In this document: piece by piece, positions 46,078 to 63,505 of the stretch
How the letters are laid out: every line of letters begins with the position of its first letter
How positions within the stretch are numbered: position 1 is the first letter of the stretch
From: Alphaproteobacteria bacterium
GTDB taxonomy: Bacteria > Pseudomonadota > Alphaproteobacteria > RF32 > CAG-239
Direction of reading: 5' to 3'
Assembly: GCA_017467515.1 (NCBI GenBank)
Contig: JAFUSU010000004.1
Coordinates: 621 to 64,620 of the forward strand
DNA length: 64,000 nucleotides
Translations under genes and position numbers: made by a program
The notes under the pieces: model-generated
What the model was told of the DNA's origin: nothing
Seen by the model: the letters and a program-made list of their open reading frames with translations, nothing else
Database searches by the model: none

Positions 46078-47625
46078 ATGAATAAAACAGGGTTTAAAAC
46101 TTTTGTTTTTAGTTTTGTTTTAACGCTGTCTGTCATTTTATATGCGGGCAGAGCGTATTTATATACCCCCGAAACGACTAAGGAACAGATTGTTATTCCT
46201 CGCAAAAATATTGCATTATTTTTTAGTCGCCCTCAATCTCAAGTTGTTTCTTCAAAAGTGGAGCCGGTACAAAGAACTGCCCTTAACCCCCCGAAAATTA
46301 AGCGTGAAAAGCTTAAAATCGTGCAGAATCTTCCGAAAGCTCCGTTGAAAGAACAAACTGCTTCCGAAACAAAAAAGTTGCCGGAAACAGATATTATTCC
46401 TCTGGAGATTGAGAAAAAAAATATCCCTTCTTCGCCTGGGTCGAAAAAAGATATTCCTGATGTTCCTCTGATTTATGCCGGAAATGAAAAGATTTTGCAA
46501 CCGATGGGAAATGCTCAGCAAAAAGTTGCTGAAAATGTTGAACCTATGCAGGTGGCGTCCGCGGCAGAAATCACGGAGCCGGAGCCGATGATGCAGCCGA
46601 TTGTCATAAAGGGAACCAGACAAATTATTAAGATAGACAATGTAAAAAAACGCCAAGAAAGGCTGAAAAAAGAACTGAAAGCTCAAGAGAATGTTTTTCC
46701 TGATGAGGAAAAACAGTTCGTTTATGAAGCAGAGGATAGTACTGTCCTTTCTCATAAAACAGATGCACCTGAAGAAAATCAGATTGCGAATTTAGGCGAA
46801 GAATTGCCTTTGAATGTCGCTGAAAATCAGCTTATTAATGATAATGATGATGAAAAGCGGGAATGGCAGACAATGGCTGAAAAACACCAAGATGAAAATC
46901 CTTGGATGGTCGCAAGAGGAAGCAAGTTTGTTAAAAATAAACAAATTTTAGAGGAGGAGTTTTCTTCGGAAAGTGCAAAACAAAAGGCAGAAATCCTGAT
47001 TCCCGAAGAAAAAACAACAGCTTCCGCAAAAGTGGCCGTTCAGGATAATTTGCTGATTCCAATACCGCAAGAACTGCTGGATGAAGATGATTTGGTGCCG
47101 AATATTGATGAGGATGGAACGAAAAAACAATCTCCGGTCTTTAAGAAAAAGAAGGACAAATCGTTTTTTGATAACATAACCTCTGTTTTTTCTAAGGAAA
47201 ACAGAGAAAAAGCCATCAAAAAACTCAAAGAAAAAAGGGCAAAACTGGTTGGCTCTGAAGGTGAGGATAGTATTCGACCTCAAATTTTACCAACCGAAAT
47301 AAGGCTTTCTTTTCAACCTAATCGGGCCGAAATTTCAGGAACAACCTTAAAATGGATTCAGGCATTTGCCAGAAAAGCATCAGAAGAGTCTGATGTGGGG
47401 TTGGAGATTAGAATAGACGGTTCTCATTCTTTTGAACTGCAACAAAAAAGGCTGAATTTGCTTTATAATATTCTGACAATGAACGATGTCCCTTATCAAA
47501 AAATAAATACAATGTTTGTTGAGCGGGAGCCTAATTCATTCGTTGTTAGAACGGTAAAAATATTAAGCGAAAAAGATAAAAAAAAGGAGGATGACAGTTG
47601 GAAAAAATATTATCAAAAGTGGTAA
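46078..47625 (+). CDS. Hypothetical membrane-anchored Pro/Lys/Glu-rich protein with a possible OmpA/MotB-like C-terminal fold
   Basis: N-terminal TM helix, long charged low-complexity region, C-terminal block IRIDGSHSF...QKRLNLLYNILTMNDVPYQKINTMFVER loosely like peptidoglycan-binding OmpA_C domains. Co-directional with and directly upstream of the pilus-like cluster. Confidence 0.45.
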   Translation: MNKTGFKTFVFSFVLTLSVILYAGRAYLYTPETTKEQIVIPRKNIALFFSRPQSQVVSSKVEPVQRTALNPPKIKREKLKIVQNLPKAPLKEQTASETKKLPETDIIPLEIEKKNIPSSPGSKKDIPDVPLIYAGNEKILQPMGNAQQKVAENVEPMQVASAAEITEPEPMMQPIVIKGTRQIIKIDNVKKRQERLKKELKAQENVFPDEEKQFVYEAEDSTVLSHKTDAPEENQIANLGEELPLNVAENQLINDNDDEKREWQTMAEKHQDENPWMVARGSKFVKNKQILEEEFSSESAKQKAEILIPEEKTTASAKVAVQDNLLIPIPQELLDEDDLVPNIDEDGTKKQSPVFKKKKDKSFFDNITSVFSKENREKAIKKLKEKRAKLVGSEGEDSIRPQILPTEIRLSFQPNRAEISGTTLKWIQAFARKASEESDVGLEIRIDGSHSFELQQKRLNLLYNILTMNDVPYQKINTMFVEREPNSFVVRTVKILSEKDKKKEDDSWKKYYQKW

Positions 47626-47728
47626 CTTATTGTAATTGGTAATAAGTCGGTGTCCGTGCTTGATTATTTATTTTTCCAAATGTATGATAAAAAAAATTAT
47701 GCCAAAAAACGTTTTAGGAACTTTAAAA

Positions 47729-48352
47729 ATGAGTATAAAATACAAACTATGCATTGTTTTAATGGGAGCGTTGGTGTCAGGTTGTATGGGAACTTTGACG
47801 CAGCCTGTGAATTTACCGGATGATCCGGATTGTGTTGAAACCGTTCCTGCCGGACCGAGTGACGGAAAGTCTGAGTTTGTAAGTTATACAGATGTTGCAG
47901 CCGATTATCGTCAATACGGAGAAAGAACACCGCGAGATCAAAATGTTGTCAGAACGGGTGCCGGAAGCAATATGTCCGCATCTATTCCGCCGTCTGTTGA
48001 TGAAGAGGTTGAAGAGTATGATGTGACAGTTGCTGAGGAAGATGAAGACGGTGACGGCACTGGCCCCCAAAATCAAGAAGATCCTGTAGAAGATTGGTTG
48101 GCAGAAGAAGGGCAAAATTTAAAAGATCTTTTGAGTGAATGGAGCGATAGGGCCGGCTGGAGATTGGTTTGGAAGACAAATCGTAATTATCCTTTGACGG
48201 CAGGGGCGATGTTTAGAGGTCGGTTTGCAGATGCAAGTGCCGCTTTAATCAGAACATTTGCGCGAGCAAAGCCTGCTCCTATTGCTACCTTTTATAAGGG
48301 AAATAGAGTTTTAGTTGTTGAAACAATGGAGGACGAAAATGCTTTTGAATAA
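47729..48352 (+). CDS. PilL-like lipoprotein (TcpQ-like C-terminal domain)
   Basis: Lipobox LVSGC. C-terminal W-rich block WSDRAGWRLVWKTNRNYPLTAGAMFRGRFADASAALIRTF...NRVLVV resembling the TcpQ/PilL domain. Position corresponds to pilL in R64/PAPI-1 pilL-N-O-P-Q-R-S. Confidence 0.45.
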   Translation: MSIKYKLCIVLMGALVSGCMGTLTQPVNLPDDPDCVETVPAGPSDGKSEFVSYTDVAADYRQYGERTPRDQNVVRTGAGSNMSASIPPSVDEEVEEYDVTVAEEDEDGDGTGPQNQEDPVEDWLAEEGQNLKDLLSEWSDRAGWRLVWKTNRNYPLTAGAMFRGRFADASAALIRTFARAKPAPIATFYKGNRVLVVETMEDENAFE

Positions 48353-49958
48353 ATTGACAAGTAATGTCTTTGTTGCGACTTTAGGCATAATGTTGATGTC
48401 CTCTTGTTCCATCTCAACGGAAATGGACGCGACAATGGATCGTGATATAGATAAAACCACGGCTTTGAGTGAACGAGCAAAAGTTCCGGCAAAACCGATT
48501 GATGAAGATGTTGTTCGTGTTAAAAATGATATTTGGTTGGGTGATGTCAGTGAAATAGAGTATGACGGACAGCCCTTGCCTGCTAATTTTGAAACGAAGG
48601 ACGGTGTAACTTTAATCAGTAATCGTCCGATTACGCTTTATGAAATCGGTGATATGATTAGTAAAATTACCTCTTTGAGAGTAAGTTTTGCCGGTAATAT
48701 GGATCAAGAAGCTCGTAAGACGGCGACAAGCAATCGTCCTAATCCGAAGAATGTAAATGTTGATTGGACAGAGCCGAATAAAATGCTTGTTTCCTATAGA
48801 GGTCCTTTGAGTGGGTTGCTTGATGAAATTGGTTCTCGTTTCGGTATTTGGTGGAAATATGATAAAAAAGAAATCCATTTTTATAAAAATATTACAAGAA
48901 CGTTTGTTTTGTACAGTTTGCCGAGTGAGCCGAGTATGAATGTGACTGTTGGCGGTTCATCTAACGGTAGCGGTGCAAGCAACTCCTTAACAATGACCAA
49001 TGCGGCAAAACTTGAATTTTGGAAGAACATTGAGGAATCAATTAAGTCAATGATTGATTCAAAGGCAAAAATCAGTATGGACCCTTCAAATGGTACGGTT
49101 GCCGTGACAGCTGATCCGAATGATATTAAAAAGGTTGCTAAATTTATCAATGAACAAAACGCAAGATTGTCGCGTCAAGTTGCTATCAGCGTAAAAGTTT
49201 TGCAGGTTAATGTTGATGATAGTGACAAATTTAATCTCGACTTAGCTGCGGCCTTTAAGGATCCGGCAGGAGGAAGTTTCGGTATAGCGGGAGTTGCAGG
49301 TTCTGCTGATGTAACGGATAATTTAACTTTGAATTTGGTTCCGAAGAATGTTAGTATTGACGCGGCTATTCAGGCATTGTCTAAACAAACAACGACGACG
49401 CTTATTACAAGCGGTACTGTAACAACCTTAAACAATAAGCCGGCTCCGATTCAGGTTGTAAAGAAACAGAACTATATCTCTGAAATAACAAAAACAAATA
49501 GTGGCGGTGATTCTAATTACTATGATATTTCTACGGAAACGGAAGAAATAGAAACCGGCTTTACGATGAATGTCTTGCCTCGTATTTTGGAACACGGTCG
49601 TGTTATGATGATGTTTAATTTAACGTTATCTGATTTGTTGTCATTGGATAAAGTCAATCTTGATGATGGTTCATCTTCTGAGGAAGGAGGATCAGGCGGT
49701 CAATATATTCAAAATCCGGTTGTTGAATCCAGAGGTTTCTCTCAGGAAGTTGTTATGACATCGGGTCAATCTCTGGTCTTGACCGGTTACGAGCGTGTTG
49801 AAAATACAACGGAAAAGACAGGTGTCGGTTCGGCAACAAATTCTTTGCTTGGCGGTGGTGCTGACGCTGCAAAAGTAAGAAGTATGTTGGTGATTATTTT
49901 AACGCCGGTCGTTTTGGAATCTCCGTTAAATCCGGAATCGAGAATGCATAACATCTAG
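48339..49958 (+). CDS. PilN-like outer-membrane lipoprotein secretin (type IVb pilus type)
   Basis: Lipobox LMSSC. C-terminal secretin-like region (VVMTSGQSLVLTGYE ... TNSLLGGGADAAKVRSMLVIILTPVVLE ~ secretin GGL...PLLG...LLIFITP). About 540 aa like R64 PilN. 14-nt overlap with the upstream gene. Confidence 0.7.
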   Translation: MLLNKLTSNVFVATLGIMLMSSCSISTEMDATMDRDIDKTTALSERAKVPAKPIDEDVVRVKNDIWLGDVSEIEYDGQPLPANFETKDGVTLISNRPITLYEIGDMISKITSLRVSFAGNMDQEARKTATSNRPNPKNVNVDWTEPNKMLVSYRGPLSGLLDEIGSRFGIWWKYDKKEIHFYKNITRTFVLYSLPSEPSMNVTVGGSSNGSGASNSLTMTNAAKLEFWKNIEESIKSMIDSKAKISMDPSNGTVAVTADPNDIKKVAKFINEQNARLSRQVAISVKVLQVNVDDSDKFNLDLAAAFKDPAGGSFGIAGVAGSADVTDNLTLNLVPKNVSIDAAIQALSKQTTTTLITSGTVTTLNNKPAPIQVVKKQNYISEITKTNSGGDSNYYDISTETEEIETGFTMNVLPRILEHGRVMMMFNLTLSDLLSLDKVNLDDGSSSEEGGSGGQYIQNPVVESRGFSQEVVMTSGQSLVLTGYERVENTTEKTGVGSATNSLLGGGADAAKVRSMLVIILTPVVLESPLNPESRMHNI

Positions 49959-49978
49959 CAGTAAGAAAGGATAGAAAA

Positions 49979-51292
49979 TTGCTGGAGAATGCCAAATTAT
50001 ATGATAAGGATTATGATTCTAATGCAACCCGTTCATGGGGAACATCGACGGTTATTGCCGGTGTAACTTACTCTACGGGTTTGTTTTGGCAACCGTTGCA
50101 AAATAAAGACGATCCTTATACGGAAATAGAAGAATCTTCCGAGAGCGTTCAGGAAGGGGCTGACCTTTTTGTTATAAAACCTGGAAAAACGGTTCAATTT
50201 GGTATTTGCGCCAGTGGCGACGGCTATAAAAAAGGAACACAGTCTTTAGCTGTAACTGTTTCAACGGCGTTGTCCGAAAAATCATCTTTTGTCGCTGTGT
50301 TTAAGGTTGATAACGGATGGTGGTATTGTTGTGTTCGTAATGACATCATCTTGTCAGATGGGGATATGTTGTTTCTGAAAGAGGATGATGCCAAAGAACA
50401 GTTTATGTCTATGATGACGGTTCCTGATTGGGGACGCCGTATTGCACCCGCCGATTGGAATATTCCGGATACGGAAGACTTGCAATTAGAAGGAATTTTA
50501 TCAAGCGGCGTTAAAGCAAAATTACAAAAAATAAAAGCACTTAGAGGACCGAAGTTATACGCGATAATAGCTCTGTCTGCAGTTGTTAGTTTTTGGATTT
50601 TATCGTCTTTTGTGACAGATGTTTTGTTGGCCCCTAAAAGAGCCCCGATTGTCATTGCTCCGGTGAAGCCGAAAATTATGAAACCGGTAAAAAAAGCTCC
50701 GGAAATTAAGCCGTGGGAAAAAATAAAGGATCCGGAGCAAATACTGTCCTATTGCTATAGAGATGTAATGCTTTTTGTTAAAATTATGCCACCGGGATGG
50801 GAAATCGGAGGAGTGAATTGCGGAGAGAACGGAGCAACGGCTTCTTGGTCCAGAAATATTGGACGTATTTCTTGGATAGATAAAGCTTTAAATGAGTCTA
50901 AAATGTCTTTTTCCGCACGTTCTATTTCTGCAGATGGAAATACGCTTATTGCCAGTACCTATTATAAGCCGGTTCTTATAAAATCACCTCCGGTTTATAC
51001 GGAAATAGAACTCAAAAATATTGTAAATGACTTATTTCAGTCTTTGAGCCAGCCGATTTCGTTAACGGATACAACGGTTGTTGTGGAGCCTCCAAAGAAA
51101 ACAAGTCGTTTTCAAGAGAGTGAAGAGGAAGCGAAAGAATATAGAACGGTTAGTTTTACTTTTTCGGCGCCTCAAAATCCGCTGGTTTGGCAAGATATAT
51201 TAACAAAATTTTCAGGACTTGTAATGTATACTATAAAGTATGATACGAGAACAAGTATGTGGACTTATGAGGGAGCAATCTATGTTATATAA
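49979..51292 (+). CDS. PilO-position pilus-assembly protein (hypothetical; TTG start)
   Basis: 437 aa with one central TM helix (LYAIIALSAVVSFWILSSFV). Call is based on position and size (R64 PilO 431 aa) only. Confidence 0.35.
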   Translation: MLENAKLYDKDYDSNATRSWGTSTVIAGVTYSTGLFWQPLQNKDDPYTEIEESSESVQEGADLFVIKPGKTVQFGICASGDGYKKGTQSLAVTVSTALSEKSSFVAVFKVDNGWWYCCVRNDIILSDGDMLFLKEDDAKEQFMSMMTVPDWGRRIAPADWNIPDTEDLQLEGILSSGVKAKLQKIKALRGPKLYAIIALSAVVSFWILSSFVTDVLLAPKRAPIVIAPVKPKIMKPVKKAPEIKPWEKIKDPEQILSYCYRDVMLFVKIMPPGWEIGGVNCGENGATASWSRNIGRISWIDKALNESKMSFSARSISADGNTLIASTYYKPVLIKSPPVYTEIELKNIVNDLFQSLSQPISLTDTTVVVEPPKKTSRFQESEEEAKEYRTVSFTFSAPQNPLVWQDILTKFSGLVMYTIKYDTRTSMWTYEGAIYVI

Positions 51293-52811
51293 GACAAGCA
51301 ATATATTGAAAAATTCTTTTCTAACGATAGGATTAGCATATTTGCTAACCTCAACATGTTATGCGCAAAGCCCTTTAGATTTGGCCGATGATTCTATGCC
51401 GAAATTGTCTCTTGAGGAGGAAAACAGAGGACAAGAAGAGAATCAAACTCAAAATAATCAGGAAAGCAATACGGCTTCAGAACAAAATAGTGAAATTGCT
51501 CCCGTAGAAAACGGAGAAGGACCTTTATTCCCTGAAAATGGATCGGATAACACGCTGTCGCTTCAGAATCAACAGGAAGCACCTTTCTTTCCTGAAAATG
51601 CTTCGGATGACGCTTTTCCCCTTTCTGACCAACAAGAAAAGCCTTTGGGTTTAGATGAAAACGCTCTGGGCGGAGAAACAGGATCTCCTTTGGATGTGTC
51701 AAATACAGAGCTGAAAAATGAAAATCAGGAGATTTCCCCCAAAGAAGAACAGGATGCCGTATTAAATGCTTACAATAATTTTGTAGAGGCAACAGACAGA
51801 GAGGCCTTTGAAAATCCGCAGCAGAACAAAGGTTCGACCTTTGGTGACAAAATTATGGATCAGGTTAAAGAAGATTTGTTCTCGCAAATGGCAGATATTG
51901 AAAAGCAAACAAGTTTGTTGACTTTGGAATTAAAACGCGAAAAAATTAAAAATGAAATCGCGGCAATGCATGCAGAACGGCAAAAAGCAATAGAAGAAGA
52001 AAAAGAAAAACAACTTGAAAAAGAACGCCGTCAAAAAGAATGGGAAAGAGAGCAAGAAAGAAAACTTCTTGAGGAAAAACAAAAACTGAAAGAAACTGAA
52101 ATCAAGTTTGAAAAATTGCGTCAAGAACGTGTCTTGAAAGCATATAAAGAGAGTATGCTGAAAACAAATCAGGAATGGGTTGAATATAATGCGCGTCTTT
52201 ATAATCAATTAGTTAGAGAAGAAGAAGAACAAAATAATCTGCTTACAGTTCAAAAAGGGTATTTTAAGGATTTATCGGAAGGAATATCCGGCTTGGTTAC
52301 CGCGGCACAGCAAGCTAAAGAAAAATATAATCGGGAGATTGCAAACTTGCAAACTCAGGTTGCAATTTTGAAATCTAAGCTGGAAGCAGAAAAGAATGCA
52401 TTTGAAGAAAGCAAAAAAAGCGGTCCTAATCCTTTTGCTTTGGTAGAAGATGATCCTAATGCTTCAAAACAAAAAATTTCTGAAGAGTATGCCATTATGG
52501 AAATCAGTGGTAAAGGTGAAAAATTGGTAGCAAAGCTGATAAACAAAAATGGCGGAACTTTTATGGTTAAACCCGGAACAATTTTGAATACGGGGCATGT
52601 TATTGAAGAAATCACTCAAACGTACATTGTAACAGACAAAGGCGGTATAAAGGATTACTTATACTTCTCTGCCGGCGGTATTCTGGATAAAGAGCCGACC
52701 AAAACGATTAACGCTGCGCCAAAAGCAAGTGTTGCATCGCAAGAAAATGAGGGCGCAGAAATAGAAGCCACACCGGTACCGAGCTTAAGAGAAGGTATGT
52801 TTGTAGAGTAG
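51282..52811 (+). CDS. PilP-position protein: signal peptide, Glu/Gln-rich repeats, long E/R/K-rich helix and a PilP/GspC-HR-like C-terminal beta domain
   Basis: Signal peptide ending TSTCYAQS. 20-aa tandem repeat (PLFPENGSDNTLSLQNQQEA / PFFPENASDDAFPLSDQQEK). ER/K-rich helix KAIEEEKEKQLEKERRQKEWEREQERKLLEEKQKLKETE. C-terminal EISGKGEKLVAKLINKNGGTFMVKPGTILNTGHVIEEI. Confidence 0.4.
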   Translation: MLYKTSNILKNSFLTIGLAYLLTSTCYAQSPLDLADDSMPKLSLEEENRGQEENQTQNNQESNTASEQNSEIAPVENGEGPLFPENGSDNTLSLQNQQEAPFFPENASDDAFPLSDQQEKPLGLDENALGGETGSPLDVSNTELKNENQEISPKEEQDAVLNAYNNFVEATDREAFENPQQNKGSTFGDKIMDQVKEDLFSQMADIEKQTSLLTLELKREKIKNEIAAMHAERQKAIEEEKEKQLEKERRQKEWEREQERKLLEEKQKLKETEIKFEKLRQERVLKAYKESMLKTNQEWVEYNARLYNQLVREEEEQNNLLTVQKGYFKDLSEGISGLVTAAQQAKEKYNREIANLQTQVAILKSKLEAEKNAFEESKKSGPNPFALVEDDPNASKQKISEEYAIMEISGKGEKLVAKLINKNGGTFMVKPGTILNTGHVIEEITQTYIVTDKGGIKDYLYFSAGGILDKEPTKTINAAPKASVASQENEGAEIEATPVPSLREGMFVE

Positions 52812-52815
52812 GAAT

Positions 52816-54492
52816 ATGGCAGAGGAAGATGAAAAAAAAGAAATAGAGGCAGAAAATGCCGCTTCAGAACAACAGAAGTCGGCAGAGGCTTCGTCTTCCT
52901 CTGATACAGATATAGAAAAAACAAGCCTTATTCAATCACTTTTTACGGCAGGAAATAAACTTCTTACCTTACCGAATTCCCAAACAATTTCTGTCGGTGA
53001 TGATACGCGCCGACTATTAGCGTTATTTTCAGACGGACGTTTTTTAGTTGTCGAAACACACAAATTCGACGGCCGTGTGATGAGCTTTCAGGTTCTGGCT
53101 AAACGAAAAGGTTTGCGCTTCGGAAAGCCTATTTTTATCAGCCAAAATGAACTGAATGCAATATATGCATATGGTGAGCGTTCAGCGCCTGTTGAGTTGT
53201 CAGAAAGAGAAGTTGAAGAAAACCAACTTCAAATGCAACGTGACTTTGTTAATGTTGTTGCCAGAGCAGCCTCCGTAAAGGTATCGGATATTCACGTCGT
53301 TGTTGCAGATAGTACGCAAATTATGTTTAGAGTTAACGGTATGATGCAAACCGTTATGGAATACGATGCACAATGGGGAGAATCTTTTGTTCGTGCGGCA
53401 TTTGCTTCTGCCGATATTTCAGACTCTAACTATACGCAAAACGAATTTCAGGGCGCACAAAAATTAGGTTCTACACCTTTAAGAGGTTCAAACGGTAAAT
53501 TGATGTTGCCGCACAACGTGTTGGCAATTCGTTTACAATTTAATCCGATAGCTTTTGGGTCGCAATATTTGGTTATGCGTTTGTTGTATGCCGATGATAA
53601 TCCGGATGGAAGTGGCGATTTGTCTTCACTGGGATTTGGAGAATATGAAGAAAATTTGTTCTATCGATTGCGCTCTGTTCCCACGGGATTAAGCATTATT
53701 GCCGGTCCGACAGGATCAGGTAAAAGTACGACTTTGCAACGCAATATGATCAAATTATTGCAAGAGAAAAATTATGAACTCAATCTGATTACGGTTGAAG
53801 ATCCGCCGGAGTATCCAATTCCCGGTGCTCGGCAGATGCCGGTGACCAACGCAAATAATGAAGAAGAAAAAGATGAAATGTTTACAAAGGCTCTGTCAGC
53901 CGCATTACGTTCAGACCCTGACGTTATTATGGTTGGTGAGATACGATCATTGTCTGCGGCAGAATTAACATTCAAAGGCGCCTTATCAGGACACGGCGTT
54001 TGGTCAACTTTACACGCAAACTCCGCTCCTGCAATCATTACCCGTTTGCGAGATATGGGAATACAAAAATTTATGTTGGCAGATCCGGAATTAATGAAAG
54101 GATTAATTTCTCAACGTTTATTTAGAAGATTGTGCCCGCACTGCCGTAAAAGTGTTAAGGATATTTTGGATCATCCGGCTGTAAAACGTTTGAAAATTGC
54201 TCTGGGTGATTTTGGCTTAGAGAATGCATTTGTGCGAGGTCCCGGATGCAAATATTGCGATAATCGCGGCGTTAAAGGTCGTTTATGTGTTCCTGAAATT
54301 ATATTGCCCGATGCGACGTTTTTGGAATTAATGATTGAGAGCCAAACACGTAAGGCGATTGATTATTGGACGAGCGATTTAAACGGGAGAACCTTAAAAG
54401 ATGCTGCAATCGAGCGTATGCTTAAAGGCTTGATAGATTTAGAAGAAGTAGAGCGCTGGTGTGGTTTGTTAGACCAACGACCGGTATATTAG
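52816..54492 (+). CDS. GspE/PilB-family secretion ATPase (PilQ-like)
   Basis: Walker A GPTGSGKST, Asp box/Walker B DPDVIMVGEIR, His box VWSTLHANSA and tetracysteine CPHC...CKYC. 558 aa. Confidence 0.85.
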   Translation: MAEEDEKKEIEAENAASEQQKSAEASSSSDTDIEKTSLIQSLFTAGNKLLTLPNSQTISVGDDTRRLLALFSDGRFLVVETHKFDGRVMSFQVLAKRKGLRFGKPIFISQNELNAIYAYGERSAPVELSEREVEENQLQMQRDFVNVVARAASVKVSDIHVVVADSTQIMFRVNGMMQTVMEYDAQWGESFVRAAFASADISDSNYTQNEFQGAQKLGSTPLRGSNGKLMLPHNVLAIRLQFNPIAFGSQYLVMRLLYADDNPDGSGDLSSLGFGEYEENLFYRLRSVPTGLSIIAGPTGSGKSTTLQRNMIKLLQEKNYELNLITVEDPPEYPIPGARQMPVTNANNEEEKDEMFTKALSAALRSDPDVIMVGEIRSLSAAELTFKGALSGHGVWSTLHANSAPAIITRLRDMGIQKFMLADPELMKGLISQRLFRRLCPHCRKSVKDILDHPAVKRLKIALGDFGLENAFVRGPGCKYCDNRGVKGRLCVPEIILPDATFLELMIESQTRKAIDYWTSDLNGRTLKDAAIERMLKGLIDLEEVERWCGLLDQRPVY

Positions 54493-54501
54493 GAGTAAGA
54501 A

Positions 54502-55617
54502 ATGGCAGAAATCAAAGGAAGACCCACGAAAAAAAATTTAAGAAAAATTAGTGCCGTAGAAGTAAAATACGCACAGATGGTTTGTTTGATGTCAAATAAA
54601 GTACGCTTAAAAATATATCGCAAGCTGGCATCATTAATGGCAAACCGCTTTTCTTTAATGGATGCGCTGGATTTGCTGTATAACGGGGCCAGTGATAATG
54701 GAAAAAAGCCTTACGAACCAATGGCTATAGCAATCGTTTCCTGGATGAAAATTTTACAAAACGGTCTTTCTTTTGCCGATGCCTTAAAAGGCTGGGCGCC
54801 GGGGCGTGAACGTTTAATGCTTTCAACAGGTGATGTTTCAAATTTGGAAAGTGCATTATTAAACCTGATTAAAGTAACGGAAGGTTCGACCAAAATGATT
54901 CGTCCTATTATCGGTGCAATTGCTTATCCTGCCTTTTTGATGATGATGTCTGTTTTGATTTTGTATGCAATAGGTGTTTATATGGTGCCGCCGATGCAAG
55001 AGGCTGCCCCAACAATGAAATGGACGGGAATGGCGGCCGATTTGGTTGGTGTTTCTGAGTGGATTCAAGTCTATTGGGCGATTGCTTTTGCCGCATTACC
55101 TGTTGTTATGATGGTTATATATTTCACTATAGGAATTTGGATTGGTAAAGTAAGAGTGATATTTGACAGATTTCCACCGTGGTCTTTATATAAAATCTTT
55201 ATCGGTATCAGTTGGCTACTGGCAATGGCAGCATTAATTAAAGGCGGTACGCCGATATCAAGTGCAATGAGTGCATTAAGACGTGATGCCAACCCTTATT
55301 TGAGAGAAAGAATAGATAAAGCATTGCGTTATATTAATAACGGTGACAACTTGGGACAGGCTCTTTATAAAACGGAACTTGAGTTTCCGGATAAGGAAAT
55401 CATCTCGGATTTGGCTGTTTATTCTGAATTGGATAATTTTGAGGAAGCAATAGATAATTTAGCAAATGAGTGGCTGGAAGAGTCTGTTTATATTATTGAA
55501 CAAAGAGCCTCTATTTTAAATATGTTGGCATTGTTGTCCATCGGTGGTATTATTGCGTGGGCAGTAATGGGCGTATTTGATATGCAAGATCAAATTACCA
55601 GCACAATGGGTAAATAA
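54502..55617 (+). CDS. GspF/PilC-family polytopic inner-membrane platform protein (PilR-like)
   Basis: 371 aa with three or more TM helices and duplicated cytoplasmic helical domains. Immediately downstream of the GspE-like ATPase, as pilQ-pilR. Confidence 0.7.
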   Translation: MAEIKGRPTKKNLRKISAVEVKYAQMVCLMSNKVRLKIYRKLASLMANRFSLMDALDLLYNGASDNGKKPYEPMAIAIVSWMKILQNGLSFADALKGWAPGRERLMLSTGDVSNLESALLNLIKVTEGSTKMIRPIIGAIAYPAFLMMMSVLILYAIGVYMVPPMQEAAPTMKWTGMAADLVGVSEWIQVYWAIAFAALPVVMMVIYFTIGIWIGKVRVIFDRFPPWSLYKIFIGISWLLAMAALIKGGTPISSAMSALRRDANPYLRERIDKALRYINNGDNLGQALYKTELEFPDKEIISDLAVYSELDNFEEAIDNLANEWLEESVYIIEQRASILNMLALLSIGGIIAWAVMGVFDMQDQITSTMGK

Positions 55618-55618
55618 A

Positions 55619-56158
55619 ATGAGAAATAAAGAGAAATTTATAATGTATATTTGGCTTTGCTCACTGGTAGCTATCGTTGCTGTTGGTATATTATTGTGCT
55701 TGCAGCGCCCGTCAAGCGAAATAGTGCAAGCAAACAGAGAGATATTGTCAACGGCAGATAAAATTCGCTCTTTTTACAGAAACAGACCTGACTATTGGGG
55801 GTTGGATACCAATGATGTTATCAGTCACAAGCTTTATGCAGGACATAAAAAAGGTCAAGTAATAGTCAATAATTTAGGGCAGGAGGTTGTGATTGGCAGT
55901 GATGCTGAGGGAACAAAAATAATGCCCGGACAAAGAATTTTTACCATAAGCTATCTGAAAACAAATAAAAAGCAATGTATAGAATTAGCTTCTTTCCGTT
56001 GGCAAGAAGAAGGGAAGTTAGGTCTGATATCGTTCAAGGTAAAGAACGGTTCCGGTGAATATGAATTTAGCTGGGGGAATAAAGGATTGCCATTGAGCAG
56101 AAACTATGCTAAACAATATTGTGAGGAAGAAAATAATTTGTCTTGGACATTTGAATAG
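55619..56158 (+). CDS. Pilin-like protein (non-canonical N-terminus)
   Basis: About 179 aa from the ATG at 55619 (the listed ORF starts at 55577). Short basic N-terminus MRNKEK, then a 22-aa hydrophobic helix, then a globular domain with a C-terminal Cys pair (QCIELASF...YCEEENN). No G/F-x-x-x-E prepilin cleavage motif. Confidence 0.35.
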   Translation: MRNKEKFIMYIWLCSLVAIVAVGILLCLQRPSSEIVQANREILSTADKIRSFYRNRPDYWGLDTNDVISHKLYAGHKKGQVIVNNLGQEVVIGSDAEGTKIMPGQRIFTISYLKTNKKQCIELASFRWQEEGKLGLISFKVKNGSGEYEFSWGNKGLPLSRNYAKQYCEEENNLSWTFE

Positions 56159-56252: not shown

Positions 56253-56543
56253 ATGAGAGAGATGATTCTAAAAGCAGTTGCAAATCCTCCAAAGATACTT
56301 TGGGGGCCCTTTTTGCCGACACTGCTTAATTTAGGAATTCAATTTCCCTTTATGTTTATGTGTATGGGTATATGGAACGTAAATCCGTTAATTTTTATAG
56401 CAACAATCGGCCTTGGTCATATTTTTGTGATTTTTTTGGGAACAAAAGATCCGCATATTTCCACAATGATACAAGCTTATGGGCAAGGACGAGTTTTGAG
56501 TACAAACCTTTATAAATGTAAGGGGAATAAATTTGCGCCCTGA
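56253..56543 (+). CDS. VirB3/TrbD-family type IV secretion protein
   Basis: 96 aa with two TM segments. ILWGPFLPTLLNLGIQFP and HIFVIFLGTKDPHISTMIQAY match the VirB3 family pattern. 11-nt overlap with the following ATPase gene. Confidence 0.65.
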   Translation: MREMILKAVANPPKILWGPFLPTLLNLGIQFPFMFMCMGIWNVNPLIFIATIGLGHIFVIFLGTKDPHISTMIQAYGQGRVLSTNLYKCKGNKFAP

Positions 56544-58968
56544 TGATTTTGACTTTTTTTCCATATTTGTTCAAAGTCTGAGCAGTATGGAGGTTATTGT
56601 AGCGGTTATCGGATTCGTTGCGGCAGCCGCATTTGCCGGTGTTTGGGTTACAAAATTCGGACATTATATTTTACCTGAACCGCATGAATCGCGGGTAGCG
56701 GATTTTTTACCGTTTACAAAATTGATGGCCGACGGCATTACCATTCGGTGCTATAATGGTTCATTTGCCCGTGTTTTTAAAGTAGAAGGTGTCGATCTGA
56801 GCTTTGTGACGGAAGAAAAAAGTATGTCAATGATGGAAGCTCGCAAGCTCTGGATTGACAGTATGGGCGAATTACAGGTTACATGCCGCGTTATCACTCT
56901 GCGCGATAAATCTGAGATGGAGGAGGATAAGGGCGATTTTGGAAATCCGATATTGGCGCAAGTTTCTGAAACATGGCATAATACCCTAGACAGAATATAT
57001 AGCAATACACACTATATTATTTTATCCGTAGCGGATCGCGCAGATGCTCTGAAAGATTTAAATTATACTTCACAGTCTTTAATGGCAACGTTAAATGATT
57101 ACGGGGTAAAACCGATGTATGAAACGGAGGACAGTCCGGCCTCTGAAAGTCCTTTTTCCGTATTCAGCCGTATATGTAGCCCGATTAGCAAACCTGAGCC
57201 GAAAGTCAGAGGAAGTGAAGGGTATGAGCTGAACGAAATGTTGACGGCAGATCATATCCATTTTACGGAAGAACAAGGGGTTATTAAGTTCTTTTCGGGA
57301 ACAAAAGAAAAATATGCAATTGTTATGGGGATCAGAACACCCGGCGATTATATGGATGAAAATATGATAGCGGGGTTGCTGTCAATTAACTGCGAGTTGA
57401 CCTTGTTGCATAATATCAGTCCGATGTTTAAGCCTAAAGCCAGAGCTTTATTAATGCAACAACAAAGAATGGCAACGTCAACAAGCTTTTCTGCTGATGT
57501 CGTTGCTCAATACAGTGAAGCTTTGTCTGCAATAGAAGATAGCGATGCCGATTATCAGGCTCTGACAGAATATGCGATGGATATTATTATCCGTGGTGAC
57601 AGTATGGAGGAGGTTGATTTCGGAGAAAGTGAAGTTCAAAGAATTTGCCGATTGTTCAGTGTAACCCCTGTTCGAGAAGGGTGGGTTGCACAAGCTGCAT
57701 TCTTTAACCAGTTTCCGACATACGATATTTTCCCGAGAACTTATCGCTATTTATCGCGCGTTGTTGCTATGGCGGTATGTTTTGATAAGCCGGCAGAAGG
57801 GTTTAGTAAAAGTGACTGGGGTCCGGGGGCAATCAGTATCTTTAGAACAACAGCCGGATCCGCCTATCGATTCCAATTCCATGTTTCAAGCGAAGATGCT
57901 GCAGTGGCACACTGCTGTATTATAGGTCCGACCGGTCAAGGTAAAACAACATTACTGACGTTTTTAGCCGGTCAAGCAATGCGTCACAAAGATTTAAAAG
58001 TATTCTTCTTTGATCGTCACCGTGGTGCTGAAATATTTACCAGAGCAGTTCAAGGGGCTTATATCGGTTTTGATGGTGATGAGAAGAATGTTTCATTGAA
58101 TCCGTTTGCCTGCGAAAATAATCCGAATAACAGAGCATTTCTTCGCCGTTGGTTGAAAGCCATTACAATGGTAGATGATGCATTATCGGAAAGAGAAATC
58201 GGACGAGCGGTTACAACTTCTTTTGATTACTTGAAGCCGGAAGAAAGAATTTTAAAAAATCTGTATAAGAGCTGTTTTTCACCAACGGGTAATATGCGTC
58301 GCGAACTCTATCGTTGGATTAATCCGGAACAATACGGTAATATCTTCAATTCTGAAACAGATAGCTTGGATTTACGTTCAAAACGTTTTACCGCATTTGA
58401 TTTCACGCATATTTTTGAAGATGAAACTTTAGCTCCGGCCGTTATCAGCTATATTATGCATCGTATTCAGTCCGAAGTAGGTGATGCAGGTGTTCCGTCA
58501 TTAATTATGATTGATGAAACGGCGCCGATGTTAAAACATCCGATGTTCCGTGATTACTTTATGATCGGTCTGCAAGAGGGTCGTAAAAAACGCCAAGCTT
58601 ATTTATGTGCATTCCAACAGCCTAATATTATTGATAAACTCGGTGTAGGTGAAGTTATTCGCGGTCAATGTCAGACGATTATTTTCTTCCGTAATCCGCA
58701 AGCAATGCCGGAGGATTATGCAAACTGGAATCTGACACAACGAGAAATAGACTTTATTTTCGGTAAGACATATCGAGATTTCCCGTATGCCATCTTATTA
58801 TCGCGTCCGGCAACGGGTGAGTCTGTTATTTTAGACGTTGATTTAAGCGGATTAGGACCGTATTTACGATTGTACAATTCAAGTCGCAAAAATGTATTAT
58901 TGGTTCAGGATTTAATAAAGGAGTATGGAGAAGCAAACTTTGTTACAAAATATTTAAATATTGCGTGA
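56533..58968 (+). CDS. VirB4/TrbE/CagE-family type IV secretion ATPase
   Basis: 811 aa. N-terminal TM helix. Walker A CIIGPTGQGKTT near residue 465. Walker B LIMIDETAP near 660. Size and motif spacing typical of VirB4. TTG start translationally coupled to the VirB3-like gene. Confidence 0.85.
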   Translation: MRPDDFDFFSIFVQSLSSMEVIVAVIGFVAAAAFAGVWVTKFGHYILPEPHESRVADFLPFTKLMADGITIRCYNGSFARVFKVEGVDLSFVTEEKSMSMMEARKLWIDSMGELQVTCRVITLRDKSEMEEDKGDFGNPILAQVSETWHNTLDRIYSNTHYIILSVADRADALKDLNYTSQSLMATLNDYGVKPMYETEDSPASESPFSVFSRICSPISKPEPKVRGSEGYELNEMLTADHIHFTEEQGVIKFFSGTKEKYAIVMGIRTPGDYMDENMIAGLLSINCELTLLHNISPMFKPKARALLMQQQRMATSTSFSADVVAQYSEALSAIEDSDADYQALTEYAMDIIIRGDSMEEVDFGESEVQRICRLFSVTPVREGWVAQAAFFNQFPTYDIFPRTYRYLSRVVAMAVCFDKPAEGFSKSDWGPGAISIFRTTAGSAYRFQFHVSSEDAAVAHCCIIGPTGQGKTTLLTFLAGQAMRHKDLKVFFFDRHRGAEIFTRAVQGAYIGFDGDEKNVSLNPFACENNPNNRAFLRRWLKAITMVDDALSEREIGRAVTTSFDYLKPEERILKNLYKSCFSPTGNMRRELYRWINPEQYGNIFNSETDSLDLRSKRFTAFDFTHIFEDETLAPAVISYIMHRIQSEVGDAGVPSLIMIDETAPMLKHPMFRDYFMIGLQEGRKKRQAYLCAFQQPNIIDKLGVGEVIRGQCQTIIFFRNPQAMPEDYANWNLTQREIDFIFGKTYRDFPYAILLSRPATGESVILDVDLSGLGPYLRLYNSSRKNVLLVQDLIKEYGEANFVTKYLNIA

Positions 58969-59049: not shown

Positions 59050-61743
59050 ATGCATAAACGGATATTTGTTAAGGTGACGATTCTTAGCGCAATCGGTGTT
59101 TTAGGCTTTATCTCTCCGAGTTCGGCAACGTGGCCGACACTTGATATGTCTGCTATCCAGCCGACAATACAAAATGTACAACAAGAGGTACAATCAGTTA
59201 AGCAACAAATTGAATCCTGTAAAGAGTTACAAAAAATTAAAACAGCTATCGGGGATGCCAAAGAAGCGGCTAGCAAATTTAATGAAGATGTTGTTCAAAA
59301 GGCTAAAAAAGAAGCAGAAAAGATAAAAAAAGAAGCAGAGAAAGTAAAAAAGATTCAGGACGATATCAAAAAAGCCAAAGAAGAGTATGAAAAGAAAAAG
59401 AAAGAATTTGCAGAATATAAGCAAAAACTGGAAGAAACAAAAGCCGCTGTTGACAGTAAAATCAAAGAAGCTCAACAAATGGCATCAGATGCCCAATCTG
59501 CAGTAGAAGGAGCAAAGGGCTTAGCATCGCAGGCAATAGCAGATGCCCAATCTCAAGTCGGTTCTGTGACATCAGATATCAGTGGGACTGTAGGAGCTGT
59601 ACAAAACAGAGTTAGCAATATCTCTGCATCGCATACAGAATCAACGGTTGATCAAAGAAGTAATGTCGGAGGAAATGTTGCTTTACCTCAAAGCAGAAGG
59701 GGAGAAATTCCATCCGGTACCGCTAATGACTTTTCCCGCACGTCTTTTAATTTGAGTGGAAACGGAGAGGCTGATGTCGGTCAAGTCGTAAGCCCTATTC
59801 AAAATAGAACAGGAGGCACAGCTCCTGCCGGCGTAAGTATGAGAGAAAGAGCAGAGGAATATGCGATGCCTTTATCTGTCCGAGAGAGCTTTGTACAAGA
59901 GGATATCCTTGCAGAACCGGCAGGTATTACTCAAGAAAGTAAAGAAGATAAAATTGTTAACCCAGAGATAGAGGCAGAGGTTGAAGATATTAAAAGAATA
60001 GCCTCAGAACAAGGGACAGACGTAGCGACAAGGCTGTTAAAAACATCTATAGATGAAGCTGTCAGAAATAAGGATATTGCCAGACTTGATGCACTCTCTA
60101 AAATAGAAACAAGTGACATTATTAATTCAAACAGCAAAAGATATGAAGAAACATCGGTAAAAGCAGAGGGAAGAAGAGCCTTCAGTAGTCCGATAGAAGA
60201 AATGAGTGTTGAAAAATTGAAAAAACAAGCGCTGGAAGCTAAAGAAAATCTTCGTCCGACAGTAGAGGAAAAGGTAACAACACCGGAAACAAAGCCGATT
60301 TCAGAATTTAAGGTGCCAGCAAAGACAATAGAAAATGTTGAAAAAGCAATAATACCTGCTCGTGAGCAAACAATAACAAATGCTCCGGTTGTGAGCAAAG
60401 TGCAAGCTGTTCGACCTCAAAATGTTGAGGTTCCTTCGCCCCTAAAAGCTCCGATTCAGGGTTTGCAGGAAAGAAAACCTTTTACGATGCCGACATCGGA
60501 CTTGGAGAAAAATTCATTTTTAATTGAGGAAAAAAAAACAGCACCAAATCGTAGCAAATTAAGTTTCGCCGATACATTGCGTTTTGCAAGTATAACCGGA
60601 GGAGAATGTACGGATTATAATAATGTTATTCAAACCAAAGACGGAACGGTTATTATTATTCCTGAACTTTTGGCAAAAGAATGTTGCCTGAAAGCTGAAA
60701 ATTTAACGGATTTAAATTTAATTCGCGATTGCGCAAAGAAGCTGGTAATAGAATCAAAGGGATTATTGGAAATTGACGAAGCAAGTTTGGAAAATTGCGG
60801 AGGAGAAGGAATTTATGATGCTTCCTCGGAACAATGCCTCACGCGTACAGATACTATGTTGGGACAGGAAAAATTAGGCGTTTATAATGAGATTGTTGCA
60901 CAGCAAGGTGCAAATGCGGCAGCAGAGGGGATAATAGACAAAGCAAAAGCCAGCAACTATGTTAAAGATTTTTTTGAACCTTATAAAGAAAAAATAGCTA
61001 AAATTCAAAGTAAGGGGGGAGGCGATACGTCAGGATCATCAAACAAAGATGCGACCTCTCTTTTAACTTTGACAAATCAACAAATGATGTATCTGTTGAA
61101 TATGATCAGAAGAAATTACACCACGACACTGGCGGATATATCGTTACGAGGTCTGGGGTCTGTTACGGAAAATGCTGTATTGGAAGATGAAAAAGGGGTA
61201 AATAGCACTCAAGAGTACGGTAATACGGTTGTTCGTCAGGAAGATGCCGTGGTAGAATATCCTATTTTGCCGGAAAACATAGCAATAAAGTGCTCAATTA
61301 AAGCAAAAGAATTGGGAGAAGATGGTTTTAATCAAATTTCACAGGCAGATCCGGCAATAACATCTTTGGCAGACTGTTACCGTCAGGTTGTTAAAGATAT
61401 AAATGTCACCAATGAAACAGAAATTGATGAGGCTCAAAAATTTATGCAATTGACGCAGTATCAGGAAAATTTAAATACCTTGGAAAAGGCACTTTATCAA
61501 AAGGTAAAAAGTTCAAAGTACGAGGAAACGCTTGATAATGCGGAAGAAACAAATAACAATGCAACAACTACCAGAAAAGGCTATTCGGCTCTGTTTCAAA
61601 CAGAAACGGAATTGGCAAGAATTGCAGATGACATGGTAAACGTTTATGCCAGTAAATTAACTTACACAGCCATTAAAGCTTTATCAAAATTAGAAACGCC
61701 GACAACGCCTTCAATTCAGAAAACCGGTGGAACGGAGGGATAG
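59050..61743 (+). CDS. Secreted coiled-coil protein, paralog A (about 897 aa) with a Cys-rich C-terminal domain
   Basis: Signal peptide MHKRIFVKVTILSAIGVLGFISPSSA from the ATG at 59050. Lys/Glu/Ala/Gln-rich helical N-terminus. Conserved block EIEAEVEDIKRIASEQGTDVATRLLKTSIDEAVRNKDIARLDALSKIE shared with paralog B. Cys-rich region CTDYNN...CCLKAEN...CGGEG...C. Confidence 0.6.
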   Translation: MHKRIFVKVTILSAIGVLGFISPSSATWPTLDMSAIQPTIQNVQQEVQSVKQQIESCKELQKIKTAIGDAKEAASKFNEDVVQKAKKEAEKIKKEAEKVKKIQDDIKKAKEEYEKKKKEFAEYKQKLEETKAAVDSKIKEAQQMASDAQSAVEGAKGLASQAIADAQSQVGSVTSDISGTVGAVQNRVSNISASHTESTVDQRSNVGGNVALPQSRRGEIPSGTANDFSRTSFNLSGNGEADVGQVVSPIQNRTGGTAPAGVSMRERAEEYAMPLSVRESFVQEDILAEPAGITQESKEDKIVNPEIEAEVEDIKRIASEQGTDVATRLLKTSIDEAVRNKDIARLDALSKIETSDIINSNSKRYEETSVKAEGRRAFSSPIEEMSVEKLKKQALEAKENLRPTVEEKVTTPETKPISEFKVPAKTIENVEKAIIPAREQTITNAPVVSKVQAVRPQNVEVPSPLKAPIQGLQERKPFTMPTSDLEKNSFLIEEKKTAPNRSKLSFADTLRFASITGGECTDYNNVIQTKDGTVIIIPELLAKECCLKAENLTDLNLIRDCAKKLVIESKGLLEIDEASLENCGGEGIYDASSEQCLTRTDTMLGQEKLGVYNEIVAQQGANAAAEGIIDKAKASNYVKDFFEPYKEKIAKIQSKGGGDTSGSSNKDATSLLTLTNQQMMYLLNMIRRNYTTTLADISLRGLGSVTENAVLEDEKGVNSTQEYGNTVVRQEDAVVEYPILPENIAIKCSIKAKELGEDGFNQISQADPAITSLADCYRQVVKDINVTNETEIDEAQKFMQLTQYQENLNTLEKALYQKVKSSKYEETLDNAEETNNNATTTRKGYSALFQTETELARIADDMVNVYASKLTYTAIKALSKLETPTTPSIQKTGGTEG

Positions 61744-61747
61744 CAAG

Positions 61748-63505
61748 ATGAGCAAAAAATTTGTTATGGTTATCCTTTCTTTGATGGTTGCTTTTTCTCT
61801 ACCTGCCCAAGCGGATATTGAATTTGTGCAAAAAGTTATGGGTAAAGCAGAAGGTGTTCAAAAAAAAGCAACGGCCGCTCAAGAAAAAATAATGGCCTAT
61901 AAAAAGAAAATGGAAGATTATGCCAAAAAGGCTAAAGGCTATATAAGTGATGCACAATCAATGGCTAATGAAGTAAAAGGAGCCATAAATGACGTGCAAT
62001 CAATGGCTAATGCCGCATTGAAAGGAGATTTTTCTTCTTTGAGTGTTATTCCGTCAGACTTAAAAACGGCTATGGCAGATGTCAAAAAAATGAAAGATGA
62101 TGTTAAAAACAAAGTTAATGACGCTAAACAGATGGCTGCCGATGCTAAAGCTGCGACCGAAGGGGCAAAGGCTTTGGCAAAACAGACGGTTGAAGATGCA
62201 AAATCTCAAGTCAGTAGTGTTAAAGATGCTACCCAAGGGGCCGTAAATTCTGTTCAAAATACAACAAAGGAAGTAACCGGATCATCTTTAAATAATGGTT
62301 TGCCAAAAACAGAGCGCACCGGTTCTTCCCCAATCTCAACGGTATCTGTTCACAATAACATAGCATCAGGACCAATACAATCTGTTACGAATACGCCGGT
62401 TAAAGCAACAACGAGAGAAAATATTTTTCCGGTAACAAATAACGGTATTAATAACATATCGACGGCGACTGTCAGAACAGATGTTGCAGTTCCAAGAATA
62501 ATCGGCCAAGAACAGCAAAGTCAAGTTGTTGCAGAAGGTATTTCCGGTATATTAAGCCCTGCTTCCGAAAAAATTGCGGAAGAAAAAATACCTCTTGATA
62601 CGGAAATTAAAGCAGAAATAGATGAAATAAAGGCAACAGCCAAAGAACAAGGTGTTGAAGATGCCAGAAAACTACTGGAGATTTCAATCGATGAAGCAAT
62701 CAAAAATGAAGATACTGCGAGATTGGATGCCTTATCAAAAATAGAAAAAGAAGATATCCTCAATGCCGGCAATAACGAGAATAAAACAGGTGGAAGAAGA
62801 GCCTTTACCAATTCGGCGGAAAACATCGCAATAGAGGGGCTGATAACAGAAGCAAAAGATGCAAAAGAAAAATTGCGTTCGGTTGCTCCGGAAAGCACAT
62901 TGAAAGTGCCTCAAAAAATAGAGCCTGAAATTATCGGAATAACAGAAAAAGTGTCAACACAAGAGCGTTCCCTTTCCGGTAAAAAAGAAATTGCACCTGT
63001 TAAGACGATGCCAACACAGGAGATCAAAGGTCCTTTGCAAAAAAATTCTTTTCTGTTTGAAAAAGATAAGCCTCTGCGGGTGAAAACATCTTATAGCGAA
63101 ACGTTGAAATTTGCCGATGAAGCAAGTGATGTTCCTGATTCGGAAGATACTTCTGCGGCTGTAACGGCAACGCTTCTTCCTGTTGAGAGTTCCGGAGATT
63201 CTGTTGAACAAGCAAAAACGGCTAAAGAAAAAATTCAGGAATATATGCGTGATGAGTTGACAGCCCTCTATGCAACAGGTTTTACCGTTCGCACCAATAT
63301 GTTGAAAGAAGCTGATAACAGAGATATCGATATGGAAGCTGAAGATCAGATGTGGCAGGAAACAATTCTCAAAGCAGAAGAATGTATTACCAGAATTGCA
63401 AAATTTCACGTTATTGAAGCAATGCTGTCGTCTTATAAATATTCCGAATCTTTGCAGGATTTGGTTGTAAAACAAACAGAAGAAGCTGAAAGCGAAGGTG
63501 AGTAA
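61748..63505 (+). CDS. Secreted coiled-coil protein, paralog B (about 585 aa)
   Basis: Signal peptide MSKKFVMVILSLMVAFSLPAQA. Same N-terminal helical repeat style and the conserved DTEIKAEIDEIKATAKEQGVEDARKLLEISIDEAIKNEDTARLDALSKIE block. Confidence 0.6.
   Translation: MSKKFVMVILSLMVAFSLPAQADIEFVQKVMGKAEGVQKKATAAQEKIMAYKKKMEDYAKKAKGYISDAQSMANEVKGAINDVQSMANAALKGDFSSLSVIPSDLKTAMADVKKMKDDVKNKVNDAKQMAADAKAATEGAKALAKQTVEDAKSQVSSVKDATQGAVNSVQNTTKEVTGSSLNNGLPKTERTGSSPISTVSVHNNIASGPIQSVTNTPVKATTRENIFPVTNNGINNISTATVRTDVAVPRIIGQEQQSQVVAEGISGILSPASEKIAEEKIPLDTEIKAEIDEIKATAKEQGVEDARKLLEISIDEAIKNEDTARLDALSKIEKEDILNAGNNENKTGGRRAFTNSAENIAIEGLITEAKDAKEKLRSVAPESTLKVPQKIEPEIIGITEKVSTQERSLSGKKEIAPVKTMPTQEIKGPLQKNSFLFEKDKPLRVKTSYSETLKFADEASDVPDSEDTSAAVTATLLPVESSGDSVEQAKTAKEKIQEYMRDELTALYATGFTVRTNMLKEADNRDIDMEAEDQMWQETILKAEECITRIAKFHVIEAMLSSYKYSESLQDLVVKQTEEAESEGE

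Follow-up and report, generated by a model that had tools for sequence, protein, structure and literature searches.

A probable VirB3–VirB4 inner-membrane module with overlapping genes and a predicted membrane-tethered ATPase, next to the type IVb pilus genes of an uncultured gut alphaproteobacterium

The stretch of DNA considered here, referred to below as the window, comprises 64,000 nucleotides (nt) of contig JAFUSU010000004.1 (assembly GCA_017467515.1, positions 621 to 64,620 of the forward strand) from an uncultured gut alphaproteobacterium of the GTDB lineage RF32/CAG-239. Near its 3′ end lie two overlapping genes that very probably encode the VirB3–VirB4 inner-membrane module of a chromosomal, VirB-type type IV secretion system (T4SS) resembling the T class of mating-pair formation systems (MPF_T). 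The ATPase carries a hydrophobic helix of its own and its VirB3-like partner is encoded separately, an arrangement that is the common state in the nearest branch of VirB4 and was already known from IncP plasmids. The window is chromosomal, with dnaA (56-1501, minus strand), dnaX, recR, dnaK/J and accA/D, and the two genes are as follows.

56253-56543, plus strand: virB3-like gene with an ATG start; 96 amino acids (aa), a divergent VirB3/TrbD, predicted to form an inner-membrane hairpin.
56533-58968, plus strand: virB4 with a TTG start; 811 aa, a VirB4/TrbE-family ATPase.

The assignment of the 811-aa open reading frame (ORF) to the VirB4 family is supported by several sequence comparisons. It matches the NCBIfam model VirB4_CagE (TIGR00929) over residues 174-802 with 368 bits (E 8e-110) and Pfam CagE_TrbE_VirB (PF03135) with 51.5 bits against a cut-off of 21, and residues 182-745 match TrwK of R388 (PDB 7o41, E 8.6e-39). 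Both Walker motifs are intact, and the motif that opens the canonical N-terminal domain aligns near TrwK residue 18.

57925-57948, plus strand: Walker A, GPTGQGKT, VirB4 residues 465-472.
58501-58518, plus strand: Walker B, LIMIDE, VirB4 residues 657-662.
56701-56715, plus strand: DFLPF motif, VirB4 residues 57-61, where the canonical VirB4 N-terminal domain begins.

Placement in an unrelated P-loop family, for example FtsK/HerA or a TraG coupling protein, was checked with hidden Markov models (HMMs), and these rivals score far lower (DUF87/HerA 21.9 bits, TraG P-loop 23.4, SXT TraD 13.4). The models of other MPF types gave 45 bits for F-type TraC, 30 for CD1110, 16 for the Bacteroidetes TraG and 13.5 for GI-type TraC, and the NCBIfam TrbE models gave 95-141 bits, versus 368 for VirB4_CagE. 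The homologues, which come from metagenome-assembled genomes (MAGs) of uncultured gut and rumen Alphaproteobacteria, are 810-811 aa long and share a conserved N-terminus. The original prediction, drawn from the window before any database search, had named a VirB4-family ATPase and had called it the only T4SS-type ATPase present; the matches and motifs above agree with the first statement, and scans of the ORFs in the window, which recovered VirB4 alone, agree with the second.

The small ORF in front of virB4 had likewise been called VirB3-like, and its identity as a divergent VirB3 is supported by transitive homology, by synteny and by its predicted hairpin. A tblastn search with the 96-aa protein against 72,556 plasmids returned one match (E 3e-4), a Microvirga protein named "VirB3 family" by the Prokaryotic Genome Annotation Pipeline (PGAP), and this protein passes the gathering threshold of Pfam VirB3 (PF05101) with 24.4 versus 23.9 bits. 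Pairwise BLASTP between the two gave E 5e-12, and hhalign of the 96-aa family alignment against the Microvirga VirB3 gave a probability of 96.6% with E 6.6e-10. Two transmembrane (TM) helices are predicted at about residues 20-41 and 45-64, and behind them come a K-D-P-H motif and a basic tail that closes with KGNKFAP; the Kyte-Doolittle segments lie at 20-38 and 46-64, and AlphaFold2 placed helices at 20-41 and 45-64 in a model whose mean predicted local distance difference test score (pLDDT) was just 66.7. An alignment of VirB3-like proteins from ten systems showed a common layout, with an N-terminal x-P-x-x-x-G-x-P, two hydrophobic helices, (K/R)-(D/E)-P and a basic tail, and in every relative examined the homologue of the 96-aa gene sits between VirB2 and VirB4. 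The database relatives of this protein, in at least 256 clusters, are without exception labelled hypothetical and have no Pfam domain, and the family can now carry a VirB3 annotation.

The two ORFs share 11 nt, and their junction has the layout of translational coupling.

56520-56543, plus strand: translational-coupling junction, with the Shine-Dalgarno (SD) sequence AAGGGG at 56520-56525, the virB4 TTG at 56533 and the virB3 stop codon TGA at 56541-56543.

The SD sequence stands 7 nt 5′ of the TTG, within the conserved Lys-Gly codons of virB3. Residues 1-18 of VirB4 are strongly conserved among 117 full-length homologues (78-97% identity), reading M-x-P-D-F-D-F-F-x-x-F-V-Q-G-L-S-S, and at position 19, a Met in the window, most of these carry Leu, Ile, Val or Ala; because of the SD sequence, the conserved residues and the rarity of Met at position 19, the TTG is taken as the real start and the 11-nt overlap as real. 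The competing start is the ATG at 56587 (Met19), which would make the helix the extreme N-terminus of VirB4 and leave the genes without overlap. ATG is a commoner start codon than TTG, and a few database entries are called there or later (P0003 with 793 aa, P0113 with 789 aa), but the residues that this start would discard are the conserved ones, the residue it would begin with is mostly not Met, a good SD sequence precedes the TTG and none the ATG, and Erythrobacter and Paracaedimonas have an ATG at the homologous, overlapping position, so that initiation at Met19 is highly unlikely. The peptide MRPDDFDFFSIFVQSLSS would be expected of VirB4 if it is translated from the TTG at 56533, not if it is translated from the ATG at 56587.

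To judge from the sequences compared, the overlap is conserved rather than a chance event: it is identical, at 11 nt, in the sister gut species (L001) and on the Erythrobacter and Paracaedimonas plasmids, and a layout of AAGGG, 7-8 nt, start codon and TGA recurs in these three and in R751. The overlap, the TTG start and the tight coupling, all of which had been predicted, are thus upheld by the ORFs, the SD sequence and the conserved layout. The VirB3 C-terminal K-G-N-K-F is dual-coded, in that its Lys-Gly codons form the SD sequence of virB4 and the codons that follow hold the virB4 start, and this dual coding may be the reason why the tail is conserved.

Translated from the TTG, VirB4 opens with an acidic peptide of 18-20 residues, which a single TM helix follows; a basic linker then leads to the DFLPF motif and on into the canonical VirB4 domains. 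The first two elements are placed as follows.

56533-56592, plus strand: acidic N-terminal peptide of VirB4, residues 1-20, conserved; probably on the periplasmic face.
56593-56649, plus strand: predicted single TM helix of VirB4, residues 21-39, VIVAVIGFVAAAAFAGVWV.

The Kyte-Doolittle score (19-residue window) is 2.57 at residues 21-39, the sole TM segment in the protein. The prediction that VirB4 begins with a hydrophobic helix was therefore right about the helix and wrong about its place at the very start, since the conserved 18-residue peptide precedes it. The spread of the helix was followed by searching VirB4 against a representative library of 1.84 billion proteins and scoring the 124 full-length representatives among the best 150 clusters, hydrophobic segments being counted on the N-terminal side of the conserved N-domain motif (D-x-LP). 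Exactly one such segment was present in 95 representatives, two in 4 and three in 1 (likely a VirB3 fusion), with none at the strict threshold in the other 24. In the 99 representatives in which the flanks were counted, the mean number of Lys plus Arg was 0.40 on the N-side of the helix and 2.80 on the C-side, and the C-side flank held more of them in 91 of the 99. Such a bias fits the positive-inside rule and suggests an N-out/C-in anchor that leaves the ATPase cytoplasmic. A cleavable signal peptide would also be N-proximal and Ala-rich, as this segment is, but the 18 residues before it are acidic, not basic, the basic residues come after it, the domain downstream is a P-loop ATPase that must be cytoplasmic, and TrbE of RP4 has been described with a TM helix (PMC13483237), which together make a signal peptide extremely improbable.

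Two further kinds of architecture were seen among the VirB4 representatives. P0357 and P0384 (~930 aa) resemble true VirB3–VirB4 fusions, and in P0250, P0253 and P0257 (1095-1255 aa) the match to the query is split in two, the ATPase half beginning at about residue 750-900, which suggests that large insertions separate the N-terminal from the ATPase domain.

In annotated comparator plasmid systems, a separate VirB3-like gene together with a helix-bearing VirB4 was found in 8 of 9, including TrbD/TrbE of the IncP plasmid R751. The two genes overlap in six of the nine (Nitrosospira by 23 nt, Erythrobacter and Paracaedimonas by 11, R751 by 4, Roseibium and Thalassospira by 1), and short gaps separate them in the Microvirga and Sphingosinicella comparators. 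TrbD of R751 (103 aa) overlaps TrbE, which starts MIEAIAIAIAVLGAVLLLILFARIR, and TrbE of RP4 is described as having a single TM helix and as part of an inner-membrane complex with TrbD (PMC13483237). General reviews give only the cytoplasmic and the VirB3-fused states of VirB4 (PMC12624023, PMC3070162), and this coverage probably explains why the arrangement had first seemed odd. The tethered, single-pass VirB4 with a separate VirB3 is a third state that the reviews leave out, yet it is the majority state of the nearest 124 representatives; with those counts and the IncP examples at hand, the suggestion in the original prediction that this state was special did not hold up. It has little import for T4SS mechanics, because the architecture is known from IncP TrbD/TrbE and is widespread.

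The likeness to the IncP pairs of RP4 and R751 extends to a separate VirB3 homologue of about 100 aa, its stop overlapping the VirB4-homologue start, and to a TrbE in which one N-terminal TM helix is succeeded by a basic linker and then by the conserved N-domain motif. Sequence identity between the IncP and window pairs is low, however, TrbE of R751 lacks the 18-residue peptide before the helix, its overlap is 4 nt instead of 11, and RP4 and R751 encode conjugative plasmid systems whereas the window locus is chromosomal with no relaxase nearby. The closest annotated relatives of VirB4, with 30-38% identity, are on the plasmids Microvirga pMVF16-3, Erythrobacter aureus, Sphingosinicella p1 and Paracaedimonas, and these alphaproteobacterial modules have the same order of VirB2, a VirB3-like protein of 89-104 aa and a helix-bearing VirB4, two of them with the same 11-nt overlap. 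They differ in having the relaxase, VirB10, VirB11 and VirD4 in a compact operon (complete VirB2-VirB11/VirD4 sets), whereas the gut clade has large coiled-coil and repeat proteins, a duplicated VirB8 and an adjoining type IVb pilus cluster. R388 TrwM-TrwK and Agrobacterium VirB3-VirB4 likewise pair a homologous ATPase with a separate two-TM VirB3 partner (PMC12624023), but TrwK has about 12 residues before the N-domain motif and no TM helix of its own, query residue 52 corresponding to TrwK residue 13. The VirB3–VirB4 fusions, e.g., that of Campylobacter, share the presence of membrane helices on the VirB4 polypeptide; in the window, by contrast, the ORFs are split by the TGA at 56541-56543 and lie in separate frames, and the VirB4 helix is single and not VirB3-like.

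From these features a course of synthesis and assembly can be proposed. Ribosomes ending virB3 would reinitiate at the TTG 11 nt upstream of the stop, using the SD sequence in the virB3 Lys-Gly codons, and this coupled reinitiation would lead to VirB3 and VirB4 being made together as partners. VirB3 would form a two-helix hairpin with both ends in the cytoplasm, and the TrbE-like VirB4 would expose its acidic peptide to the periplasm, cross the membrane once and continue through the basic linker into the cytoplasmic N-terminal and ATPase domains. The helix would thereby tether the ATPase to the inner membrane next to VirB3, as reported for RP4 TrbE with TrbD.

Downstream of virB4, which stands at the head of a T4SS gene row, the window holds two genes for secreted coiled-coil proteins.

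59050-61743, plus strand: secreted coiled-coil protein, first of two paralogues.
61766-63505, plus strand: secreted coiled-coil protein, second of two paralogues.

These paralogues (34% identity over 394 aa, E 1e-42) stand where VirB5 and VirB6 would be expected, contain alanine- and lysine-rich repeats and have no assigned family, and the sizes of the coiled-coil proteins differ from species to species (in L001, 628, 259 and 398 aa). Beyond the window, on the species' own contig (L009, 13128-21740), the row continues with proteins of 458 and 1433 aa, VirB8, a 62-aa lipoprotein (VirB7-like), a second VirB8, CagX/VirB9 and a repeat protein of about 1400 aa, and L012 (4002-16017) shows the same succession from the large unassigned protein (1387-1433 aa in the two loci) through VirB8, the 62-aa lipoprotein and VirB8 to CagX/VirB9. 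The VirB8-VirB7-VirB8-VirB9 order is reminiscent of the rvh system of the Rickettsiales. Relatives also have two or three tandem VirB2 genes directly 5′ of virB3, the sister species having two (L001, 8788-9590). Two rumen MAGs have a TrbC/VirB2-like segment within the T4SS row itself, about 6 kb before VirB9 (L013, ~3705-3938; L014, ~3594-3860), perhaps an additional pilin gene or else a fused domain.

Several results weigh against the reading of the pair as a VirB3–VirB4 module of such a system. The 368 bits of VirB4 lie below the curated NCBIfam cut-off of 643 for TIGR00929, and the TM and topology calls were made from hydropathy and charge counts. For the 96-aa protein there was no match to PF05101 at E up to 10 and none in NCBIfam or the PDB, a 32-sequence profile of its family found no TrwM in the PDB, and hhalign detected nothing between the family profile and R751 TrbD, entered as a single sequence; a Foldseek search of the low-confidence model against the PDB returned meaningless helical matches only. 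The weakness of the VirB3 assignment lies in its passage through a single bridging member barely above the Pfam threshold, and this Microvirga VirB3, used as query for a broad bridging family, found just 6 close relatives. The lack of a direct match to Pfam VirB3, to TrwM or to TrbD is what would be seen if the ORF encoded an unrelated small membrane protein, with the VirB4 helix standing in for VirB3 in this lineage. Such an origin is nevertheless very improbable in view of the significant database-wide match to an annotated VirB3 above the Pfam threshold, the hhalign result with it, and the length, hairpin, K/R-D/E-P motif and VirB2-VirB4 position common to the ten systems.

The gaps in the gene row count on the same side. 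No VirB2/TrbC was recognised in the 64-kb window by tblastn, phmmer or a 10-sequence HMM run on all six-frame ORFs, nor in the 17 kb downstream; no VirB10, VirB11 or VirD4 was recognised beside the T4SS row in any relative examined, and no relaxase follows the row. At the VirB10 position after VirB9 stands a protein of 1480 aa (1400-1480 aa across loci) with YD/beta-flower repeats and no VirB10 signature. The T4SS of the window species may be scattered over the chromosome, very divergent, or partly degenerate and incomplete.

Upstream of the VirB3–VirB4 pair, the original prediction had noted a complete GspE/GspF pair, and this was indeed found, as PilQ and PilR of a larger cluster.

46078-56158, plus strand: R64-type type IVb pilus cluster (Pfam TcpQ, Secretin, PAP_PilO, T2SSE and T2SSF; TIGR03021 PilP).
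52816-54492, plus strand: PilQ, a GspE-type ATPase (PF00437).
54502-55617, plus strand: PilR, GspF-type (PF00482).
55643-56158, plus strand: 171-aa protein after PilR; hydrophobic helix at the N-terminus, two cysteines close to the C-terminus.

The gene order is a 515-aa protein of unknown family, a TcpQ/PilL-like protein, the PilN secretin (PF00263), PilO (PF06864, 68.5 bits), a PilP-like protein (TIGR03021, 30.4 bits, below cut-off), PilQ, PilR and the 171-aa membrane protein. The last has no family match and no prepilin G/E5 motif, and could be either a PilM-like assembly protein or a pilin of non-canonical type; the scanned window ORFs yielded no prepilin peptidase, and no canonical prepilin was recognised in the window. 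The cluster resembles the thin-pilus pil cluster of R64 (IncI) in its matches to PilL/TcpQ, PilN, PilO, PilP, PilQ and PilR, and differs in that the neighbouring T4SS is VirB/MPF_T-like, not I-type or GI-type. Just upstream of the pilus cluster lie two tandem paralogues of the alpha-amylase family (GH13) at 40985-42541 and 42651-44225.

The proximity of the two sets of genes had led to the suggestion that two motor ATPases feed one envelope machine, i.e., that the GspE-type ATPase of the pilus and VirB4 act on one shared apparatus encoded by a single row of genes. In favor of this, the pilus cluster and virB3-virB4 are co-directional in the window, the 95-bp gap between them has no terminator-like site, so that read-through from the pilus operon may occur in the window species, no VirB2 was recognised in the window or the 17 kb after it, and the R64-type cluster and the T4SS row adjoin throughout the gut alphaproteobacterial clade. 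Each set, however, has components of its own, the pilus its own secretin and outer-membrane channel, PilO and PilP, and the T4SS two copies of VirB8, the VirB7-like lipoprotein and VirB9. In sister species (L001-L003, one sister species having 83% VirB4 identity) and at least 24 metagenome loci (within L031-L085), moreover, the opposite strand carries the pilus block (1-8469 in L001), which faces away from a row of two or three VirB2, then VirB3 and VirB4. The co-directional block was seen only in the window species, and the opposite strand in the relatives indicates that this layout is a lineage-specific, derived inversion and not a conserved operon fusion. A type IVb pilus beside a T4SS is also a theme of R64 and PAPI-1, where the two are cooperating but separate machines. 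From gene content and layout, the PilQ and VirB4 ATPases are best assigned to two machines, and a single hybrid apparatus is a most unlikely arrangement, contrary to the suggestion.

The failure to recognise VirB2, VirB10, VirB11 and VirD4, together with the missing terminator, leaves a small probability for a partnership between pilus and T4SS. It is conceivable, at a slim chance, that the always-adjacent R64-type pilus and VirB-type T4SS of the clade form one functional unit, and that the window species lost VirB2 at this locus and had virB3-virB4 placed behind the pilus operon. If so, the type IVb pilus would replace the T4SS pilus in cell contact, and a tethered VirB4 with a conserved periplasmic 18-residue peptide could suit a machine without a pilin. 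A widespread clade of uncultured gut Alphaproteobacteria keeps a conserved T4SS on the chromosome next to a type IVb pilus cluster, which may bear on host or inter-bacterial interaction. As to its place on the chromosome, dnaA is at the window start and the cumulative GC skew climbs steadily from about 12 kb, which puts the pilus/T4SS region on the leading strand, about 45-60 kb away from the probable replication origin.

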